Source: an uncultured virus (IMG/VR IMGVR_UViG_3300011955_000032)
Lineage: Duplodnaviria; Heunggongvirae; Uroviricota; Caudoviricetes
IMG/VR virus record: IMGVR_UViG_3300011955_000032
Location: 47,239-67,238 of that record
Reading direction: 5' to 3' (one strand)
Length of the DNA stretch: 20,000 nucleotides
Below the pieces are notes generated by a model that saw only the letters and a list, made by a program, of their open reading frames with translations, was not told the DNA's origin and searched no databases. The position numbers and the translations under genes are program-made. Positions within the stretch are counted from its first letter, which is position 1, and every line of letters starts with the position of its first letter. Positions 3-20,000 of this stretch are shown here, piece after piece.

Positions 3-3000
3 CGTCTGGGCCTGGAGACCGCCGAGACAGCCATGGCCAAGATCGGCACGGGCGCGACCACGGAGGTGCCGCTGTCGGCCCAGCGCCGCATTCTGGGCGG
101 CATGGTGTCCGAAGCGGTGCTCCAGGAACTGCCCCAGTCGGCTCAGGAGCAGATGTGGCAGAACTACGCCGACGGCAAGCCGCTCATGGAGGGCGTGGCC
201 CGGGCCAGCACGGAAGGCGCGATTGCGGGCGGCGTGATGGGGGCGGGCGCCAACGTGAGTGGCGGCGCAAACCGTCGCGCACGCCAGGCAGACCAGCAGG
301 GCCGCCAGCGCGCGGAGGATGCCGCAGCCAGTGCCAACCAGCTGGCCGAAGAGGCAAGCATCCAGAACTTGGCCGGGCAGCCGGTCAACCCCGTGGACCT
401 GGGCGCGCCCGCCAGCTTCGAGGACCTGGTGACTTCCAGGCCCCAGGCCGAGCCGGACCCCTACACGGCATGGGACCAGCAGGTGCAGGCTGGCGCACGT
501 ACCGCGCAGCCGGGTGCTGCTGCTCCTGCAAAGGCTGCTGGCCCTGCAGTGGACCCATTCACGGACTGGGATGAGCAGAACGCTGCGGTGCGTGAGTTCC
601 TCAGTCGCCCGCAGGATGCCCCCCAGCAGCGTCCAGACTACCTCGCCGAAGTCCAAGCCGCCGTGCGCAGCGGCACGCAGTTCTCCACCCAGCAGACGGT
701 GGACACGGTGCGCGATGCGATGGAGGACGCCTGGCTGGCTCAGAACGTGGGCGCTGATCCTGCGGGTGCGCCAGCCTCTGGTGCTGGGCTGCAGGCGGCA
801 GACGCCATGGGCGTGCAGCTGCAGGGCCAGTTCCAGCAGGCCAGCGAGGATGCCGGCATTGCCGCTGTGGACGCCCGAGTGCGCACCGGCCGCATTCTGT
901 CCGGGCTGCAGAACCTACTGGACGGCGGCGCCCAGAACACGGCCCAGGTGCTGGGCGGCCTGAACGAGGGCCTGGCCCGCATCAACGAGCAGCCGTTGGA
1001 CACCGCTGAGACGCAGCGCGTGCGCCGCATGGTGGACGCCTACATGGGATTCCGGGGTGTGGGTGAGCCTGCGCCGCTGCCGGCCGACCGCGCGCCAGCG
1101 GTGGACCCCTTCGCCGACAACGCCGCCATGGAAGCGCTGATCCCCCAGCGCCCGCTGCAGCGCCCCTCCGAGCGCATGGGCATCAACCCCGCAGACGGCC
1201 CGCTGTCGCGCGGCGCAGCGATGGCGGTGGATGCCGGCTTCGACGCCACCCAGCAGGCCACCCTGCAGGCCCAGGAGATCGCAAATGCCCAAGGTGCCCA
1301 GGCACAGGCTGCCGCCGTGGCCGCCCCAGCAGCCAATCCCCCAACCGGACCCGGCGCCCTGGAAGCCGCTGGGCCTGGCCCCCTGACCCAAACCACAGGA
1401 GCCACCTTTGCCCCGCAAGCCGATCAAGCCCAGCAAGCTGGCGCGCAACCTCCGCAAGCAACTGGAGCGCCAAGCGCGCCGGCTGCTGGTGCTGCTGCAG
1501 CGCAGGAAGGTCTGACCAATGCCAGCACCACGACTTTCAACGATGGCGCGCAAGGCGGCCCGGCGCCAGGCGCGCAAGGACAAGCGCAGGCAGCAGCTCC
1601 CCGCCCGGCCAACTGGCGATCCAGCGCGCTTCCTGCCGGCCGCGTGGCCCGGAGTCTGGGAATAGATCCCAAGGGGAAGAGGCTGGCGCAGATCCTGGCT
1701 GAGATCGATGCCGCTGATGCGGCGCGATCGAACCCCGTATCACCAGCGACGAGGGATGCACAGCTTGCCAAGCTGCGCGACGAATTGGGCGAGGGTGTGG
1801 GCACCTATGCGCAGAAGCTGGCGACAAGGTTGGGCGATGCGCGGTACAGCCTGATGCAGGCAGAGAGCCTGTCTCCTATGCAGCAGCGTCTTTCCGGCAG
1901 GAATCTGGCAGAAATTCGCGCAGAGATCGCGCGCTTGGAGAGCGCTGCCGAAAGTGCCACCTTGCTGGACGATATCGATTTGCGGGACGGCTTGAACCGC
2001 AGCATGCTGGCTGGCGCGCGACAAGAGCTGGATGCCAGCCCCCTCGGTAACCAAGATCGCTTGGCGGTTGCCTCGGCTGCCAGAGAGGCCGGAAATGCGG
2101 CAGATGCTGCTGCGACAGTGTTCGCAGCCGTGGATGGCGCTGAGACCCCCGCTCTTGCGCGCAAGCAAAGTCCTGATCCTCAGTTCAGCCGCGACATGCC
2201 CGAGGAGCTGGCCCGGGAGATCCGCAAACTGCGCCCACCTGTCTACCCGGCCACGAACGCCTCTGTGCGCCAGGCGGTCGGCCAGCTGGTCGGCAGCATG
2301 GGCATGCTGCCCAACCGCTTGGGCCGCATCGTGGTCACGACCTCGGATGACATCCGCGCCAACTGGGAGCCGCTGATCGGACCCGTGGCCATGGGTGCAG
2401 AGGGCGGCGGCAAGGCCCAGGGCTTCTACGATCCCAACACCAAGACCGTGTTCATCATCTCCGACCACATCGTGGCCGGCGACGAGCTGGGCGTGGTGGC
2501 GCACGAGCTGATGCACAAGCACGGGCCTGCGGTGCTGGGCGAGGAGGGGTGGAACCAGCTGCATGGCGCCATCGGCGGCTGGGCCAGTGCGCAGGAGGGA
2601 AGCCTGGAGCGACAGGTCTACAACGAGGCCGCCGCGCGCGTACGCGATTCCCAACCGGCCGTTGCAGATGCGCAAGCCTACTCGTCGCAGGAACTGTTCC
2701 CCTACGCCGTGCAGGTCGCGCTGGAGATGGGCGTGCGCCCCAATGCGCTGGCCAAGCCTGGCACCGTGGCGCGCTGGCTGGACCAGGTGCGCAAGGTGCT
2801 GCGCCAGGTCTGGGCCAAGATCGCCGGCAGCCGAAGTGACTTTGGCAGCCAGGACCTGGTGAACCTGGCCTTCGGCATTGCGCAGCGGGAAAACCCAGCA
2901 CATACAGGAGAACTGGATGGAGCCATTGCTTCGACTGCTGAATCGAGTGCCCAGCCAGAGCAGGCAGACGCCGCCTCCATGCCAGGGCAGGCCGGTGAGC

Positions 3001-6000
3001 GGAAAGATGAGCAGCGGGCGCGCATTCTTCAGGGGGATCCGATCCTGACCCTCACTGGCGAGGAAGCACCCCAAACCGGCATGCTGGCCGTGCGTCAGTG
3101 GGCAACGGAGCTATTTCGGCAGCAGGGTGGCAAGGCCGTGAACCCGGAAATCGGTGAGGTGACGCTGGATGGACGCTCGGTGCGCGATTCCATGGCGCAT
3201 GGAAAGCCTAACCCGTTCAAATACACAGCGTTTGCTGCAGTGAAGGACGTGCTGGAGAAGGGCGCTGTCGTGCTGTCCACCCAGCATGGCCGCGATGGCC
3301 AGAGCTTCTACGTGAGCGCGCCAGTGCGCATCAAGGGTGTGGACGACGTGGTCACCGTGCTGGTGCGCCGCGATCCGAATGACCAGCGCATGTACCTGCA
3401 CAGCGTGGCCACAAAAGAAAATCTCCTGAATCGTCGAGTTTCCGGGACTGACACCGCAGGCGGTGTGGAGCGATCCGGCTCATCCAATTCAGGAGACGGT
3501 TCGATAGTAGCGCAGCAGCAGCCCGCTGGCAAGTTGTCCTCTGAGGCGGTAGCCAATGAAATCAACAGGTTGTTGAAGAAGCCAGTGCAGTTCAGCCGAG
3601 CCGCGCCGGCCGCGCCCACGGCAAGCGACTACACCGCCGAGCAGGCCCGTGCCGCAGAGCATGCCTTCGGTGTCCAGGTGAAGCAGACCTGGGCCGAGCG
3701 TGCGCAGGCCATGCGCCAGAACTTCGGCACGCGGCTGCGCCAGGGACTGGTCGACCAGTTCGCACCCCTCAAGGAGATCAGCGAGAAGGCCTACATCCTG
3801 GCGCGCCTGTCCAAGGGCAGCGACGGTGCGGTGGAGGCGGCGCTACTCTACGGCAAGCCCTACCTGCGCGACGGCGTGGCCGACGTGGACATCAAGGACG
3901 GTGGATTCGCCAACGTGCTGGCCAGCCTCAAGGGCGAGCACGACCGGTTCTTCCAGTGGGTGGCCGCCCAGCGCGCGCAGCGCCTCAAGGCCGAAGGCAA
4001 GGAGAACCTGCTGACCGACCGCGACATCACAGCCCTGCGCTCGCTGGATGCCGGCCGCATGGCCGATGGCACGGCCCGCATGCCGCTGTACGCTGCAGCG
4101 CTGCGGGAGCTGAACGCCTTCAACGAGGCCAGCCTGAAGGTGGCTCGGGACTCCGGCCTGATCGACCAGGCCGCCTACGACCTCATGAAGGACCAGCCCT
4201 ATGTGCCGTTCTACCGCCTCATGGAAGAGGACGGCGGCATGCGCGGCCCGCGCTTCAGCTCCGGGCTGGTGAACCAGCAGGCCTGGAAGAAGCTCAAGGG
4301 CGGCACGCAGCAGCTCAATGCCGACCTGCTGCAGAACACGCTCATGAACTGGAGCCACCTGTATGCCGCCGCCGCGCGCAACCGGGCCTCCCTGGAGACC
4401 ATGGACGCGGCCGAGAAGCTTGGCGCTGCCGAGCGCGTGCCGGCGGACACCAAGGGCTCGGTGAAGGTCATGCGCAACGGCGTGGCCGAGCACTGGGCCA
4501 TAGAGGACCCGCTGCTGGTCGATGCCATCTCGGCCATGAGCTACACGCCCGGCGGCATCGTCAAGGCCATGGCGCCGTTCAAGCGCCTGCTGACCTTCGG
4601 CGTGACGGTGAACCCCACCTTCAAGATCCGTAACCTGATCCGCGACAGCCTTTCGGCCATCGCCCAGAGCGACCTGAGCTACAACCCGCTGGAGAACGTC
4701 GCCAAGGGCTGGAAGGCCACGTCCAAGAACAGCCAGACCTATGCCTCCATGCTGGCCAGCGGCGGCATCATCAAGTTCGGCACGCAGGAGAACACCAACC
4801 AGCTGCGTGGCCAGATCGAGCGCCTGGGCGGCACCATGCTGGACAAGCAGGGCTTCGACAAGCTCAAGGACCAGATGCGCTCTCTGTGGGAGGTGTATGA
4901 GGAATTCGGCGACCGCACCGAGAACGTGAACCGCACGGCGCTGTACGAACGCCTGCGCGCCAAGGGCCTGAGCCATGCCGAGGCCAGCTTCCAGGCCCGG
5001 GACCTGATGGACTTCAGCATGTCCGGCAAATGGGAGACGGTGCGTTTCCTGGCCCAGACCGTGCCCTTCCTGAACGCGCGCCTGCAGGGCCTGTACAAGC
5101 TGGGCCGCGCCGCCGGCGAAGACCCGCGCCGCTTCGCCGCCATGGCCGGCGCCGTGTCGCTGGCCAGCCTGGGCCTGCTGGCCGCCTATGCCGATGACGA
5201 CGACTGGAAGAAGCGCGAGGACTTCGACCGGGACAATTTCTGGTGGTTCAAGATCGGCGACAAGGCCTTCCGCATCCCCAAGCCCTTCGAGGTGGGCGCC
5301 ATCGGCACGGTGGCCGAGCGCACGGCCGAGCTGATGATGAGCGAGGAGATGACCGGCAAACGCTTCGGCCAGCGCATCAGCGACATGGTGTTCAACACCT
5401 TCGCCATGGACCCGACGCCCCAGGCCATCAAGCCTTTCTTGGACGTCTACGCCAACAAGGACAGCTTCAGCGGCCGGGCCATCGAGGGCATGGCCGACGA
5501 GCGCCTGCGCCCGCAGGACCGCTACAACGAGCGCACCTCGGAGGTGGCGCGCCTGCTGGGCTCCTGGGGCCTGCCGGACCCGGTGCGCCTGGCCAAGGGG
5601 GAGTACTCGGGCCTGAGCCCGAAACAGGTGGACTTCCTGCTGCGCGGGTACTTCGGCTGGCTGGCCACGGTGAGCACCACTGCCACGGACACCATCGCGC
5701 GCCCGATGCTGGACCGCGGCGAGCGGCCGGCCATGCGCTGGCGGGATGCCTTCGTCGCCGGCAACTTCGTCGAGGAACTGCCCACGGGCTCCAGCCGCTA
5801 CGTCACCACCATGTACGAGCAGGCCAAGGGCGTGGAGCAGGCTTGGGCCAGCCATCAGGCTGCGATCAAGTCCGGCGACGTGGAGCTGGCGCGCAGCATC
5901 CAGGAAGAGGAGGGGCCGAAGCTGCGCAACCGTATGGCCATCAACGCCGCCAAGCAGCAGATGGCCGAGCTGGGCCAGCGCGCCAAGAAGATCGAGGGGG

Positions 6001-6098
6001 ACCGCCTGATGAGTGGCGAGATCAAGCGAGAGCGCCTGACCCAGATCGAGCAGCAGCGCAACGCCATCGCGCAGCGCGTGGCGGGGCTCACAGACTGA
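3..6098 (+). CDS. Giant phage polyvalent / DNA-ejection-type protein (>2021 aa, 5'-truncated): Ala/Gln/Pro-rich N-part, zincin metallopeptidase-like domain, LPD3/BECR-like domain, LPD38-like C-terminal region
   Basis: Frame is open from nt 3 (RLGLETAETAM...), so ATG 33 is probably internal. QGFYDP...VAHELMH (HExxH at 2502-2516)...SQELFPY fits a zincin. 3021-3410 (NPEIGEVTLDGRSVRDSMAHG...FYVSAPVRI...RMYLHSV) resembles LPD3. ~5240-5800 (FWWFKIGDKAFRIPKPFEVG...SPKQVDFLLRGYFG) resembles LPD38. Strong GC3 codon bias. Confidence 0.85.
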   Translation, partial: RLGLETAETAMAKIGTGATTEVPLSAQRRILGGMVSEAVLQELPQSAQEQMWQNYADGKPLMEGVARASTEGAIAGGVMGAGANVSGGANRRARQADQQGRQRAEDAAASANQLAEEASIQNLAGQPVNPVDLGAPASFEDLVTSRPQAEPDPYTAWDQQVQAGARTAQPGAAAPAKAAGPAVDPFTDWDEQNAAVREFLSRPQDAPQQRPDYLAEVQAAVRSGTQFSTQQTVDTVRDAMEDAWLAQNVGADPAGAPASGAGLQAADAMGVQLQGQFQQASEDAGIAAVDARVRTGRILSGLQNLLDGGAQNTAQVLGGLNEGLARINEQPLDTAETQRVRRMVDAYMGFRGVGEPAPLPADRAPAVDPFADNAAMEALIPQRPLQRPSERMGINPADGPLSRGAAMAVDAGFDATQQATLQAQEIANAQGAQAQAAAVAAPAANPPTGPGALEAAGPGPLTQTTGATFAPQADQAQQAGAQPPQATGAPSAPAAGAAAAQEGLTNASTTTFNDGAQGGPAPGAQGQAQAAAPRPANWRSSALPAGRVARSLGIDPKGKRLAQILAEIDAADAARSNPVSPATRDAQLAKLRDELGEGVGTYAQKLATRLGDARYSLMQAESLSPMQQRLSGRNLAEIRAEIARLESAAESATLLDDIDLRDGLNRSMLAGARQELDASPLGNQDRLAVASAAREAGNAADAAATVFAAVDGAETPALARKQSPDPQFSRDMPEELAREIRKLRPPVYPATNASVRQAVGQLVGSMGMLPNRLGRIVVTTSDDIRANWEPLIGPVAMGAEGGGKAQGFYDPNTKTVFIISDHIVAGDELGVVAHELMHKHGPAVLGEEGWNQLHGAIGGWASAQEGSLERQVYNEAAARVRDSQPAVADAQAYSSQELFPYAVQVALEMGVRPNALAKPGTVARWLDQVRKVLRQVWAKIAGSRSDFGSQDLVNLAFGIAQRENPAHTGELDGAIASTAESSAQPEQADAASMPGQAGERKDEQRARILQGDPILTLTGEEAPQTGMLAVRQWATELFRQQGGKAVNPEIGEVTLDGRSVRDSMAHGKPNPFKYTAFAAVKDVLEKGAVVLSTQHGRDGQSFYVSAPVRIKGVDDVVTVLVRRDPNDQRMYLHSVATKENLLNRRVSGTDTAGGVERSGSSNSGDGSIVAQQQPAGKLSSEAVANEINRLLKKPVQFSRAAPAAPTASDYTAEQARAAEHAFGVQVKQTWAERAQAMRQNFGTRLRQGLVDQFAPLKEISEKAYILARLSKGSDGAVEAALLYGKPYLRDGVADVDIKDGGFANVLASLKGEHDRFFQWVAAQRAQRLKAEGKENLLTDRDITALRSLDAGRMADGTARMPLYAAALRELNAFNEASLKVARDSGLIDQAAYDLMKDQPYVPFYRLMEEDGGMRGPRFSSGLVNQQAWKKLKGGTQQLNADLLQNTLMNWSHLYAAAARNRASLETMDAAEKLGAAERVPADTKGSVKVMRNGVAEHWAIEDPLLVDAISAMSYTPGGIVKAMAPFKRLLTFGVTVNPTFKIRNLIRDSLSAIAQSDLSYNPLENVAKGWKATSKNSQTYASMLASGGIIKFGTQENTNQLRGQIERLGGTMLDKQGFDKLKDQMRSLWEVYEEFGDRTENVNRTALYERLRAKGLSHAEASFQARDLMDFSMSGKWETVRFLAQTVPFLNARLQGLYKLGRAAGEDPRRFAAMAGAVSLASLGLLAAYADDDDWKKREDFDRDNFWWFKIGDKAFRIPKPFEVGAIGTVAERTAELMMSEEMTGKRFGQRISDMVFNTFAMDPTPQAIKPFLDVYANKDSFSGRAIEGMADERLRPQDRYNERTSEVARLLGSWGLPDPVRLAKGEYSGLSPKQVDFLLRGYFGWLATVSTTATDTIARPMLDRGERPAMRWRDAFVAGNFVEELPTGSSRYVTTMYEQAKGVEQAWASHQAAIKSGDVELARSIQEEEGPKLRNRMAINAAKQQMAELGQRAKKIEGDRLMSGEIKRERLTQIEQQRNAIAQRVAGLTD
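3413..3431 (-). terminator. U-tract after the closing stem; likely intrinsic 3' end of the antisense RNA
   Basis: Minus strand reads ...ATTCAGGAGA-TTTTCTTTTG. A/T runs of this kind are rare in the GC-rich CDS. Confidence 0.5.
3413..3497 (-). ncRNA. Putative ~85-nt structured antisense small RNA inside the giant CDS
   Basis: Predicted +1 (~3497) coincides with the edge of a perfect 10-bp inverted repeat (tctcctgaat 3422-3431 / attcaggaga 3487-3496). This encloses an inner hairpin acaccg-cagg-cggtgt (3451-3466). On the minus strand the closing stem is followed by TTTTCTTTT (3421-3413). Confidence 0.6.
3504..3532 (-). promoter_or_regulatory. Intragenic antisense sigma70-like promoter (-35 TTGCCA, 17-nt spacer, -10 TACTAT)
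   Basis: Plus-strand tggcaa at 3527-3532 and atagta at 3504-3509, spaced by exactly 17 nt. -35 matches 5/6 and -10 matches 4/6 with TA...T conserved, in otherwise very GC-rich coding DNA. Confidence 0.7.
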
Positions 6099-6258
6099 TC
6101 GCGCCGCGCCGGATGAACTGCCAGATGAAGCCCACGGCGCCGAGCCCGAGGATGATCAGCCAGTAAGTCTCGATCATCGAGCGGCGCTCGGCGGGCGTGG
6201 TCAGCTTGAAGAAGAGGATGGCTGCGATCACGAGCAGCCAAAAGATGATGCCGGGCAT
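6088..6258 (-). CDS. Small 56-aa two-TM membrane protein (moron-like, candidate superinfection exclusion)
   Basis: MPGIIFWLLVIAAILFFKLTTPAERRSMIETYWLIILGLGAVGFIWQFIRRGAISL has two hydrophobic helices. It fills the gap between + strand genes, converges on the giant gene and has a promoter directly upstream. The ORF-track start at 6462 overlaps the next gene and is unlikely. Confidence 0.75.
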   Translation of the reverse strand: MPGIIFWLLVIAAILFFKLTTPAERRSMIETYWLIILGLGAVGFIWQFIRRGAISL

Positions 6259-6264
6259 GGAGAC

Positions 6265-6293
6265 ATGGTAGGGGCCGGCGCGTGCCGTCGCAA
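6265..6293 (-). promoter_or_regulatory. sigma70-like promoter for the small membrane gene (-35 TTGCGA, 17 nt, -10 TACCAT), leaderless
   Basis: Plus-strand tcgcaa 6288-6293 and atggta 6265-6270 with a 17-nt spacer. The -10 box ends 6 nt before the ATG at 6258 and there is no SD. Confidence 0.65.
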
Positions 6294-6311
6294 TCCTCAC
6301 TGCGTGGCACA

Positions 6312-6361
6312 CCCCCGCCCAAGGTTCGACCCAAACGCGCGCACCCGGGAGACTGCGGTGC
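6312..6361 (+). promoter_or_regulatory. Late-promoter-like motif copy 1 (CCCCCG-ccc-AAGGTTCG-N20-GAGACT-N7-ATG)
   Basis: Same motif and identical spacing to the ATG as copies at 14597 and 17384. Confidence 0.75.
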
Positions 6362-17433: not shown

Positions 17434-17745
17434 ATGAAGAAATACCTCGTATCCCTGCTCGCGCTGATGGGCATCCACCAGCACCTGAGCGCCGAGCAGC
17501 GGCAGGACCTGGCCAATGCTGCTGTTCATGCCACGCCAGGCGCTGCTGCCACCGGGGTGTTCAAGGTCTGGGGGCTGCCGCTCAGCGAATGGCTGGTGGT
17601 GGCTTCGCTGGCATTCATCGTGCTGCAGGCTGGCTACCTGATCTGGAAGTGGCGACAGGACTATCAGCGTGCCCAGCAGCGGCAGCGCCTCGCGCGGCTG
17701 GCTGGGCTCAAGCCTGAGCCTGAAACGGACTGGGGCGCGCCATGA
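17434..17745 (+). CDS. Holin, 103 aa
   Basis: Immediately upstream of the lysozyme. TM segment WGLPLSEWLVVASLAFIVLQAGYLIWKW resembles the T7 gp17.5-type holin, followed by a basic tail. Confidence 0.8.
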   Translation: MKKYLVSLLALMGIHQHLSAEQRQDLANAAVHATPGAAATGVFKVWGLPLSEWLVVASLAFIVLQAGYLIWKWRQDYQRAQQRQRLARLAGLKPEPETDWGAP

Positions 17746-18326
17746 GCAAGACCCCGCGCACCGCCGTCGCCGCGCTCACCATCTCGGCAGCCGGCCTGCT
17801 GGCCACCATGGGCGTGGAGGGCTTCCGGCCAGATCCCCATGTGCCAACCCAGGGCGACAGGCCCACCATCGGCCACGGCTCGACGGTCTACGAGGACGGC
17901 ACGCCCGTGCGCATGACCGATCCGCCCATCACCCGCGAGCGCGCGCTGCAGCTGGTGCGCAGCCACACGTCCAAGGATGAGGCCATGTTCCGAGCCAGCC
18001 TGCCGGGCGTGGCCCTGTACCAAACGGAATACGACCTCTATCTGGACTTCACCTACCAGTACGGCATCGGCGCCTGGCGCACCAGTCCCATGCGCGCGCG
18101 GCTGCTGGCCGGGCAGTTCGCGCCCGCCTGCCAGGCGCTGCTGGGCTATCGCTTCATGACCAGCCCCAAGCGCGAGGGCTCGGGCTGGGAGCCTTACCAG
18201 TGGGACGCGGCCGGCCGCCCCAAGCGCTGGCGTTTCGACTGCAGCACGCCAGGCAATCGCATCTGCCGCGGCGTCTGGATCCGTCAACAGGCGCGGCATG
18301 CCGCGTGTATGGAGGCCCAGCCATGA
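17742..18326 (+). CDS. Endolysin, GH24 (T4-type fold) lysozyme with a SAR-like N-terminal anchor, 194 aa
   Basis: Weakly hydrophobic Ala/Gly-rich N-terminus after basic residues. EG...PTIGHGST catalytic region, EYDLYLDFTYQYGIG, C-terminal GVWIRQQAR...C. Confidence 0.9.
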   Translation: MSKTPRTAVAALTISAAGLLATMGVEGFRPDPHVPTQGDRPTIGHGSTVYEDGTPVRMTDPPITRERALQLVRSHTSKDEAMFRASLPGVALYQTEYDLYLDFTYQYGIGAWRTSPMRARLLAGQFAPACQALLGYRFMTSPKREGSGWEPYQWDAAGRPKRWRFDCSTPGNRICRGVWIRQQARHAACMEAQP

Positions 18327-18376
18327 GCCCGATCTGGATCGCAATGTGGTGTTACTGGTGGAGGGGAGGGCGATGA
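18323..18376 (+). CDS. 17-aa Trp-rich mini-protein MSPIWIAMWCYWWRGGR in the lysis cassette
   Basis: SD ggagg at 18311-18315. Its ATG overlaps the endolysin TGA (ATGA) and its TGA overlaps the Rz ATG (ATGA). Too short for the ORF track. Confidence 0.6.
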   Translation: MSPIWIAMWCYWWRGGR

Positions 18377-18885
18377 TCCCGGCGCTCTACACCCACCTGG
18401 GAGCCGCCGCCTTGGCCGCCGCGCTGGCATGGCAGTTCCAGGGCGCGCGCCTGGGCGCCGAGCTGGCCGAGGCTCGGCTGGAAACCACCACCCAGCAGCT
18501 GGCCACCAGCACGGCGCAGCGCGCGGCCGACGCCCGCGTGCGCCAGGCCGAGCAGGCCATGACCAAGAAATACCAAGGAGCCCTCAATGCCGCTCGTGAC
18601 CGCGAGGCGCTGCTGCGCCGTGACCTTGACCATCTGCTCGCTGTCTCTGACGGCCTGCGCGAGCAATCCGCAGATGCCGCCCGCCGGCTTGCCAGCGCTC
18701 CCCCCGCCGCCGTCCTTGAGTACGCCACTGCCCTCGGAGTCGTATTTGAAGACTGCCGCGCAGCGTATGGGGACATGGCAGCAAAAGCTGCAGGGCACGC
18801 AGCTGATGTCCAAACCCTCGGCGCCGCCTGGCCCGTGATCCCGCGCCTGCCGGCCGCAGGCACCACCGCAGAAAGCAATCCATGA
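18373..18885 (+). CDS. Rz: Rz-like inner-membrane spanin, 170 aa
   Basis: Start re-assigned to ATG 18373 (gaggggagg SD). N-terminal TM then coiled coil, downstream of the endolysin, with an embedded lipoprotein ORF. Confidence 0.85.
   Translation: MIPALYTHLGAAALAAALAWQFQGARLGAELAEARLETTTQQLATSTAQRAADARVRQAEQAMTKKYQGALNAARDREALLRRDLDHLLAVSDGLREQSADAARRLASAPPAAVLEYATALGVVFEDCRAAYGDMAAKAAGHAADVQTLGAAWPVIPRLPAAGTTAESNP
18587..18838 (+). CDS. Rz1: Rz1-like outer-membrane lipoprotein spanin embedded in Rz (+1 frame), 83 aa
   Basis: aaggag SD upstream. Signal peptide with lipobox LTAC, Pro-rich mature part (PPAGLPALPPPPSLSTPLP), fully nested in Rz. Confidence 0.85.
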   Translation: MPLVTARRCCAVTLTICSLSLTACASNPQMPPAGLPALPPPPSLSTPLPSESYLKTAAQRMGTWQQKLQGTQLMSKPSAPPGP

Positions 18886-20000
18886 ACACCTCTCCCATCA
18901 AGCCCACAATCGGCCGCCGTGTCTGGTTCCGCCCGAGTGCTCGGTTTCTGGAGCGCAACCCAACCGTGACGCAACTGGGGTCTGGCCAGCCGATGGACGC
19001 CGGCATCGTCTATGTTCACCACGACCACATGGTGAATCTGGCCGTGTGTGACCACGTTGGCCGGACGCATATGGTGCCGAGCGTGCCGCTTCTGGCCGGT
19101 CAATGGGAGCCGAGCGACGATGACTACATGGTGTGCGAATGGATGCCGTACCAGAAGAGCCAGGCGGCGAAGGCCGAAGCCGCGCCAGGTGCGATCGAAT
19201 CCAAGGCCTACGGCGACGGCACAACAGCCACCGGCCCAGGCCCTCTGCCCGACCTCTCTCCGGCTGAGCAGTCCATCGAAGCCGAGATCCAGGCCAAGGG
19301 CAAGACAGCGGCGCGGGTCACCCCCGATGACATCCAGCGGGAGATCGTGGAGGAGACCTACTTCACTGCTGCCGAAGGTCGGCACGGGCACTCGCACAAG
19401 AACCACGGCTTCGAGTACGCCGAGCCGGCCAACAGTCCCCTCAACTTGCTGACGTTCTGTGTTCTGGAGCTGCGCAACGGCTTCACGGTGACCGGCGAAA
19501 GCGCGTGCGCATCCCCCGAGAACTTCGACGCCGCCATCGGCCGCCGCATCGCGCGCGAGAACGCTTTGCAAAAGATATGGCCGCTGCTGGGCTTCCGGCT
19601 GCGCGACAAGCTGGCGGGCATCAACGACCCCAGCAAGGCCGAGCAGGTCCTGGGCGAGGTGCTTTCTGTGGTGCAGCACTACCTTCCGCCGGATGGTGGC
19701 ACGGTTCATGAGGCGATGGACAAGATCATCGGGCTGGTGGACCCCTGGCCTCTGCATGCTCGGCCCCTGCCTTGTGGCACCAAGCCGCGCACAGCGCAGT
19801 CTGCCATCGATGTAGCTGCTGAAGAATATGCCCGTGATGAGCAAAACCTGAGCATCTCCAAATTGCACAGCCGTGAAGCCCAGGATGCAGTCACAGCCGC
19901 CTTTGAAGCTGAGCGTGCAGCAGACGCGGCCTGCAAGGCAGCTCTGGGCAAGCTGGCAGAGGCGGCGCTACCCAAGCACCCGGACGCAGGACAGAGCTGA
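18882..20000 (+). CDS. Multi-domain protein, 372 aa, with a central N4 Gp49/Sf6 gene 66 family domain
   Basis: ATGA-coupled to Rz. ~19266-19613 EQSIEAEIQAKGKTAARVTP...LTFCVLELRNGFTVTGESACASPENFDAAIGRRIARENA..KIWPLLGF is the Phage_gp49_66 signature. Separate N-terminal and C-terminal segments flank it. Confidence 0.85.
   Translation: MNTSPIKPTIGRRVWFRPSARFLERNPTVTQLGSGQPMDAGIVYVHHDHMVNLAVCDHVGRTHMVPSVPLLAGQWEPSDDDYMVCEWMPYQKSQAAKAEAAPGAIESKAYGDGTTATGPGPLPDLSPAEQSIEAEIQAKGKTAARVTPDDIQREIVEETYFTAAEGRHGHSHKNHGFEYAEPANSPLNLLTFCVLELRNGFTVTGESACASPENFDAAIGRRIARENALQKIWPLLGFRLRDKLAGINDPSKAEQVLGEVLSVVQHYLPPDGGTVHEAMDKIIGLVDPWPLHARPLPCGTKPRTAQSAIDVAAEEYARDEQNLSISKLHSREAQDAVTAAFEAERAADAACKAALGKLAEAALPKHPDAGQS

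Follow-up and report, generated by a model that had tools for sequence, protein, structure and literature searches.

The last gene of a Delftia-type provirus encodes a modular protein of 372 aa in which a domain of the Acb4 sponge family is joined to an N-terminal five-stranded barrel, a member of a large unnamed family that was found repeatedly fused to, or next to, sponge domains of known type. The reading that best accounts for these observations, to which we give about an even chance of being right as a whole, is a prophage anti-signalling fusion that combines an Acb4 sponge with a barrel binding a nucleotide signal not yet covered. The Acb4 domain would, as tetramers, bind cyclic dinucleotides (probably 3'3'-cGAMP and c-di-AMP), and their capture would blunt CBASS. 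The barrel would be an independent module from the same toolkit, one that most likely oligomerises and binds a nucleotide immune signal outside the classical test panel, while the two C-terminal modules, D3 and D4, would be optional passengers in a variable slot right after the Rz gene. Coupling to Rz would probably limit expression to lytic growth and so hold the sponge back in the lysogen, in which it might otherwise disarm its host or set off sponge-sensing guards. Published data were taken from 10.1101/2024.12.30.630793 (PMC11722364), 10.1101/2025.07.12.664507 (PMC12265669) and 10.64898/2026.06.04.730250, and further from PMC13712596, PMC13640721, PMC13728456, PMC13232231 and PMC12393519.

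Genomic setting of the fusion gene

The source record has 67,238 bp and is classed as a 100 % complete provirus; the window, the whole stretch of 20,000 nucleotides that was analysed, is its final 20 kb. The provirus is of Delftia type, and close homologues of the gene carry Delftia names. The TGA stop codon of the gene ends on the final base of the record, which makes it the last gene of the provirus. Truncation at a contig end was ruled out and the stop is real, because a relative (L004) is identical over the last 12 bases and its sequence runs on beyond them. The genes at this end of the window are listed below.

17434..17745, + strand, holin (phrog_920, E 1e-14)
17742..18326, + strand, endolysin (phage lysozyme; domain/family library match)
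18373..18885, + strand, Rz-like spanin gene (probable start at 18373 after GGAGG; phrog_5777; weak Rz-like matches, E 0.001-0.006)
18587..18838, + strand, probable nested Rz1-like lipoprotein gene (lipobox-like, Pro-rich; no library match behind the identity)
18882..20000, + strand, gene studied (complete ORF of 372 aa, ATG to TGA)

The gene order is holin, endolysin, Rz-like gene and then the fusion gene; the ORF inside the Rz-like gene is presumably an Rz1-like lipoprotein gene. The end of the Rz-like gene and the start of the fusion gene share 4 bases (18882-18885), which confirms the coupling to lysis genes described in the original prediction, and both sequence motifs that it had quoted are present in the translated protein. 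It is this overlap with Rz that points to late expression. The promoter scan returned 0 sites, and the two terminator-like sites (1.0 expected) were taken as chance. No further sponge domains were detected in this provirus genome by the sponge profiles built here.

Other features of the record were also noted. Window positions 33-6098, in the virion region, encode a protein of 2,021 aa that carries the polyvalent domains LPD3 and LPD38. At the left end of the record (G000:C1:369-2811, L198) lie two ORFs of 414 and 375 aa, neither with an NCBIfam or PADLOC match, and an ORF at 3628-4854 near that end is taken to be a second integrase-like ORF beside the one at 5155-6318.

Domain organization and module shuffling

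The whole-protein AlphaFold2 model (mean pLDDT 76.9, pTM 0.38) places a domain of five strands at aa 13-87 and Acb4 at approximately aa 132-244, followed by two low-confidence helices at aa 250-285 (pLDDT ~50-57) and a single long helix at aa 308-362. The protein was divided into the following parts.

18897..19172, + strand, N-domain (aa 6-97), a barrel of five strands resembling SH3/Tudor/KOW domains and closed by a C-terminal helix; unnamed, and found as a family of stand-alone genes as well
19173..19265, + strand, linker (aa 98-128) with a small predicted hairpin
19266..19619, + strand, Acb4 domain (aa 129-246) of the Gram-negative subtype; Pfam core aa 146-244, equal to 19317-19613
19629..19754, + strand, D3, a two-helix module (aa 250-291); mobile, conserved and unnamed, with low model confidence
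19797..19976, + strand, D4, an Ala-rich long helix (approximately aa 306-365) that relatives may lack; Ala makes up 28 % of aa 306-372

This five-part layout, and the shuffling of the parts among the 120 best of 1,424 homologues, bear out the earlier description of a modular protein. The N-domain and Acb4 occurred together in 92 of these 120 and Acb4 was combined with D3 without the N-domain in 24, leaving four with neither arrangement, and only two homologues had all four parts as in the present protein. D3 was placed N-terminal of Acb4 in two of the 120, where its copies were approximately 55 % identical. In P0076 and P0093, Tad2 takes the place of the N-domain and is joined to Acb4 by the same linker.

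Rough, uncorrected dN/dS values, from pooled codon differences against close loci (6-9 sequences each), were 0.13 for the N-domain, 0.28 for Acb4, 0.09 for D3 and 0.46 for the linker. Near-identical copies of D3 were present at seven viral loci, one locus (L137) carries D3 without Acb4, and a search of the ESM Atlas with D3 gave no match; D3 is conserved yet narrow in distribution, being restricted to close relatives. D4 is frameshifted in two relatives (L004 and L005) and missing from most others, and this tail is dispensable. The fold searches used the whole-protein model, which hardly probes D3 and D4. Because D3 occurs only in close relatives and the tail is mostly frameshifted or absent, the term 'multivalent' used in the original prediction applies mainly to the N-domain and Acb4.

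The central domain belongs to the Acb4 family

PF13876 matched aa 146-244 over the full length of the model (100.6 bits, cut-off 27; E 7e-29). This Pfam family is assigned to Acb4 in the Acb4 paper, in line with what the original prediction had stated for Phage_gp49_66. Direct sequence similarity to Acb4 of Bacillus phage SPO1 was weak (E 0.098), but a profile match to the SPO1 structure, 9E4W, reached E 5.9e-7. The same structure was the top Foldseek match of the model (probability 1.0, E 0.004) and superposed in the VIA comparison with a Z of 8.9 and an rmsd of 2.4 Å over 74 residues; both methods placed a 9E4W-like three-stranded sheet flanked by helices in the model. The central Gp49 domain is, as had been proposed, of the Acb4 family and fold, which it has in common with SPO1 Acb4 and the proteins of PA15, N4 (gp48) and PEV2. 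In phage N4 (L130, EF056009) the PF13876-like gene is annotated as gp48, though the Pfam name reads Gp49.

The ten pocket positions compared (K36, F48, E49, V56, Y57, F62, N63, I66, T70 and K81) are among the pocket residues that the Acb4 paper lists for SPO1; their numbers in the PDB entry are greater by one. The present protein retains F48, F62 and I66, and the changes of V56 to C and of N63, a backbone contact, to D are similar or backbone-only. The remaining five differ (K36 to L189, E49 to T202, Y57 to A210, T70 to I223 and K81 to P234), so that, relative to SPO1 Acb4, residues contacting guanine and phosphate are replaced. A further difference from SPO1 Acb4 is the presence of three added modules. 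These five replacements, and a long insertion that separates strands one and two of the domain, could be explained by an Acb4 domain that has lost or changed its ligand, but this is very unlikely given that the same residues are found in the homologue from Pseudomonas PA15 (A0A1Q9XIK3), that the Acb4 proteins of N4 and PEV2, both tested, also have Thr at the E49 position, and that F48, F62 and I66 are retained. By eye, 44 of 56 core residues and each of the 10 pocket residues compared are identical between the present protein and that of PA15. The PA15 protein was counted among the eight homologues that Fig. S4A of the Acb4 paper names as tested, all described there as binders of 3'3'-cGAMP, since its name and N-terminus match that figure and it has a row in Table S3. 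The domain therefore aligns with Acb4, as predicted, while the SPO1 pocket residues that were also expected are in five cases missing, yet identical to those of PA15.

Because at each of the ten positions it has the same residue as a Pseudomonas homologue reported to bind cGAMP, the domain probably works, and by this analogy it is very likely an active cyclic-dinucleotide sponge. Its ligands are probably 3'3'-cGAMP and c-di-AMP, like those of other Gram-negative Acb4 proteins: c-di-AMP is reported to be bound only by homologues from phages of Gram-negative hosts, and N4 Acb4 to bind it at 111 nM and to trigger PanDA. Taken alone, the Acb4 part is ordinary and already published. A Delftia K82 protein with the N-domain, Acb4 and D3, 93 % identical to the present protein, is one row among the 1,331 homologues in the table of the Acb4 paper and lies outside the eight tested homologues named in Fig. 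S4A.

The N-terminal barrel represents a large unnamed family

Modelled in isolation, the N-domain is a five-stranded barrel with a C-terminal helix (pLDDT 89.0). Its fold matches were led by Tudor, PWWP, KOW and SH3 domains (best Z 6.1, rmsd 3.5 Å over 59), none reached Z >= 8, and the scores were in the range expected generically for a common arrangement. It resembles these barrels in its five strands (Z 5-6) and differs by the added, conserved C-terminal helix. Foldseek gave no match at E 0.001, PDB sequences gave no match, and no Pfam, NCBIfam or PADLOC model was found for the domain. The Tad2, Sequestin and RyR families (PF11195, PF21825 and PF02026) were absent from the N-domain of this gene and of 94 aligned members, and Acb2, Tad1, Lockin, TadIV-1 and Acb5 were not among the matches listed from PDB sequence and fold libraries, which may not hold every one of these families. 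A weak match to N_BRCA1_IG in 2 of the 94 members was taken as noise. The domain matched only phrog_2293 in PHROGs (unknown function, E 1e-4), solely weak uncharacterised phage proteins in BFVD, and three unnamed clusters of 89-97 aa in the ESM Atlas (at 0.92).

The N-domain profile recovered 4,576 clusters at 50 % identity (3,132 at E 1e-10), many of which are of single-domain length; likewise, 62 of the 95 loci described below encode an N-domain protein of at most 135 aa. A gene of Xanthomonas phage Sopo is one of the stand-alone homologues. P8, G11, R12, V45, N52, W87, M88 and Q91 were 99-100 % conserved across 253 members, a set partly gathered by words containing these conserved motifs. 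The domain is charge-neutral (9 K/R, 9 D/E), and its near-invariant polar residues are R12, N52 and Q91. No published description of the barrel was found in the searchable literature, which excludes most subscription journals, and by this measure it is undescribed so far, whereas Acb4 and sponge fusions are already published.

Barrels of the SH3, Tudor, PWWP and KOW types commonly bind peptides or nucleic acids. As these lead the fold matches, they favour an alternative in which Acb4 is an active sponge and the barrel an anti-defence module whose target is not a nucleotide but a protein, such as an effector, a signal synthase or a guard of the Panoptes/PanDA type. No partner protein was identified, and we regard this explanation as rather unlikely; the published screen considered below bears on it in both directions.

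The barrel is associated with known sponges

The N-domain was found fused to Acb4, Tad2, Sequestin, RyR and Tad1, that is, to five sponge families. Among the best 150 of the 4,576 representatives of 50 % clusters, 21 had a Pfam partner, and in 20 of these the partner was a sponge family (Acb4 10, Tad2 6, Sequestin 4); 129 had no Pfam match, and one sub-threshold match to FtsK_gamma was seen. Of 120 long carriers, 55 were left out as already in the Acb4-biased set. The 65 new ones were partnered by Acb4 (27), Tad2 (13), RyR (4), Sequestin (1), other domains (3) or none (17), and one of the 17 matched Tad1 structures (E 1e-11). In one protein each, the barrel was also joined to a domain of the YAcAr/SLOG, the Cpn10 and the FGE-sulfatase-like type (P0292, P0291 and P0268).

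Neighbourhoods were compared at 95 barrel loci (80 of 367 viral, 39 genome and 2 phage records, minus 26 near-duplicates). A known sponge domain was fused to the barrel or lay within 600 bp of it at 35 of the 95 loci (18 fused, 17 adjacent), compared with 1 of 43 and 0 of 45 loci for two control genes of the same prophage, although the sponge profiles were built from N-domain carriers or proteins like the present one, a bias that favours the test set over the controls. These two accessory genes are presumably DUF551-like and H-NS-like. Separate sponge domains numbered 23 within 600 bp and 7 further away, a 16-fold difference in density whose p-value is overstated because the loci are interrelated, and 54 of the 95 loci had no known sponge domain within the DNA examined. 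The barrel motif is also present in published homologue tables, at 17 places in the file of Tal et al., where the rows shown are Sequestin fusions including one barrel-Acb4-Sequestin protein, and at 8 places in that of Hadary et al., where the rows shown are from the Acb2 and Tad2 sheets; the available passages of those papers contain no discussion of these rows.

These associations make the N-domain a strong candidate for an anti-signalling module, and such a role is likely. The same surveys contain observations that would suit a protein in which only Acb4 counters defence, while its three other modules just ride along or assist (in stability, oligomer scaffolding, localisation or virion loading) and collect at the same accessory sites. 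N-domain genes often follow the portal gene, flank terminase genes or sit in recombination modules (176 neighbour genes, chosen by a simple rule, many without a match), such fusions exchange a large number of small modules unrelated to one another, D4 has the frameshifts noted above, and the screen described next was negative for a sister clade. A passenger would not be expected to show the 16-fold sponge density within 600 bp (23 versus 7 matches), Pfam partners that are nearly all sponges, many members of single-domain length or near-invariant R12, N52 and Q91, and we consider this explanation unlikely.

A sister clade in a published screen

Tal et al. screened 124 candidates that were predicted homo-oligomers with positively charged pockets between subunits, and expected real sponges to be a minority of them. 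Three candidates in their Table S2 (Ga0209919_100007456, Ga0193743_100292612 and Ga0314855_10010626), all listed as predicted hexamers, have a motif in common with a natural family homologous to the N-domain. In the reported results, none of the three made cultures collapse when combined with Thoeris I, Thoeris II, CBASS (3'3'-cGAMP) or Pycsar cUMP; for Pycsar cCMP there is a single, negative result, transformants of the other two being lacking. Natural members of this sister clade were fetched by the shared motif (80 loci examined, 62 non-redundant). The barrel profile scored >=20 bits on 11 of the 62 loci, and hhalign aligned the clade with the N-domain at a probability of 98.6 % and E 1e-15 (40 of 62 aligned, including P0439, a bridging member with the motifs of both clades). 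On these alignments the sister clade is homologous to the N-domain, but the C-terminal motif and the helix, both near-invariant in the clade of the present protein, are missing from most sister-clade members. A known sponge domain lay within 1.2 kb at only 1 of the 62 loci, and a motif search of the candidate table, as available, found no member of the present protein's own clade.

The screen cuts both ways: it gives independent structural support for a pocketed oligomer, yet is negative on the signals named in the original prediction, and the proteins screened come from a sister clade rarely found near known sponges, not from the clade studied here. Of the earlier proposal that the partner domains bind immune signals (CBASS, Thoeris, Pycsar), the candidacy of the N-domain stands by association, and the named systems are those on which the sister clade was negative. 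Selection of that clade for positively charged pockets between the subunits of predicted hexamers argues against a protein-binding barrel. On the other hand, protein-binding inhibitors (Tad3-8) are known and Acb4 is reported to trigger Panoptes and PanDA, so that a guard-blocking companion would be favoured beside every kind of sponge; both the pairing with five sponge families and the negative screen fit such a barrel. The Acb4-Sequestin fusion of Ab09 still triggers Panoptes according to its report and is barrel-less, hence no test of guard shielding. For the barrel to bind a nucleotide rather than a protein, we put the chance at even or slightly below.

A published counter-precedent for active sponge partners is gp68_N of phage CB1, reported to be without anti-Thoeris activity. 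The protein concerned, RyR-Tad or RyDEP (gp68), likewise combines a sponge with an N-terminal domain of unknown function, and its RyR domain is also a fusion partner of the barrel. Identity of the inactive gp68_N with the barrel was rejected (hhalign probability 0.6 %, no HMM match), and the two are unrelated.

The site after Rz is a variable anti-signalling slot

A survey seeded with the Rz-like protein covered 55 of 65 loci, 10 weak partial matches having been dropped, and 40 non-redundant loci had at least 600 bp downstream. At 10 of these 40 relatives a known sponge domain came directly after Rz. The arrangements varied and included barrel-Acb4, Tad2-Acb4, and hairpin-Sequestin followed by Acb4; Delftia PS-11 has a fusion of barrel and Sequestin, with Acb4 as the next gene. 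The post-Rz site is a lysis-coupled, variable anti-signalling slot in part of this prophage group. Elsewhere the N-domain adjoins genes for portal, terminase or recombination functions, and in N4-like phages Acb4 is reported at a replication-region hotspot, so that linkage to lysis genes characterises this prophage group and not the N-domain. The present gene differs from those of known Acb4 proteins in its position after the lysis genes of a temperate phage.

Relatives without a sponge had other occupants. L166:3124-4533 (also L172) encodes a post-Rz SIR2-type protein (PADLOC PDC-S25, E 8e-84), a match which suggests that the slot can hold a defence gene in sponge-less relatives.

Several unnamed modules recurred in these surveys. 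A helical hairpin of approximately 55 aa was fused to Sequestin, to the barrel and, in a published table, to Tad1 (L013:3564-3734; L148, L152 and L173 after Rz; P0287, P0300, P0302, P0305 and P0433). It had no PDB or NCBIfam match and is a second orphan sponge candidate. Proteins with the hairpin motif account for 7 of the 124 screened candidates, listed as predicted hexamers and negative wherever transformed. Other recurring modules (P0019, P0025, P0029, P0033, P0064, L003:2992-3798 and L136-L138) include a helical stretch between the barrel and Acb4, and a hairpin resembling the N-terminal extension of the tested Variovorax Acb4. A Cys/His-rich N-terminal motif, which may bind metal, also recurs in fusions.

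Relation to known sponge fusions and implications

The original prediction was right that sponges are fused to each other: Acb4-Tad2 (Pasteurella phage Pm86), Acb4-Sequestin (Ab09 gp59) and Tad2-Sequestin have been published, and like the present protein they carry at least two small modules per chain. The fusions of Pm86 and Ab09 are each reported to inhibit both CBASS and Thoeris. Sequestin itself was discovered through its fusion to known sponges, in a search described as limited to Pfam families. The barrel could not have surfaced in a search of that type, because no Pfam or NCBIfam model exists for it.

It is plausible, with the balance tilted somewhat against it, that the barrel constitutes a very large unnamed anti-signalling family of phages, acting as a sponge for a novel signal or as a shield of known sponges against Panoptes/PanDA-type guards, and combined by Delftia-type prophages with Acb4, Tad2, Sequestin and other modules in an Rz-coupled slot. 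The pattern of pairing with sponges, and of a sister clade that passed a structural filter and failed on the signals tried, points to an untried signal or another mechanism. With 97 aa, a confident model and many stand-alone members, the barrel would be cheap to test, and the post-Rz slot supplies a list of further candidate modules. Study of the barrel could expose a signalling defence that is still without a matched inhibitor.
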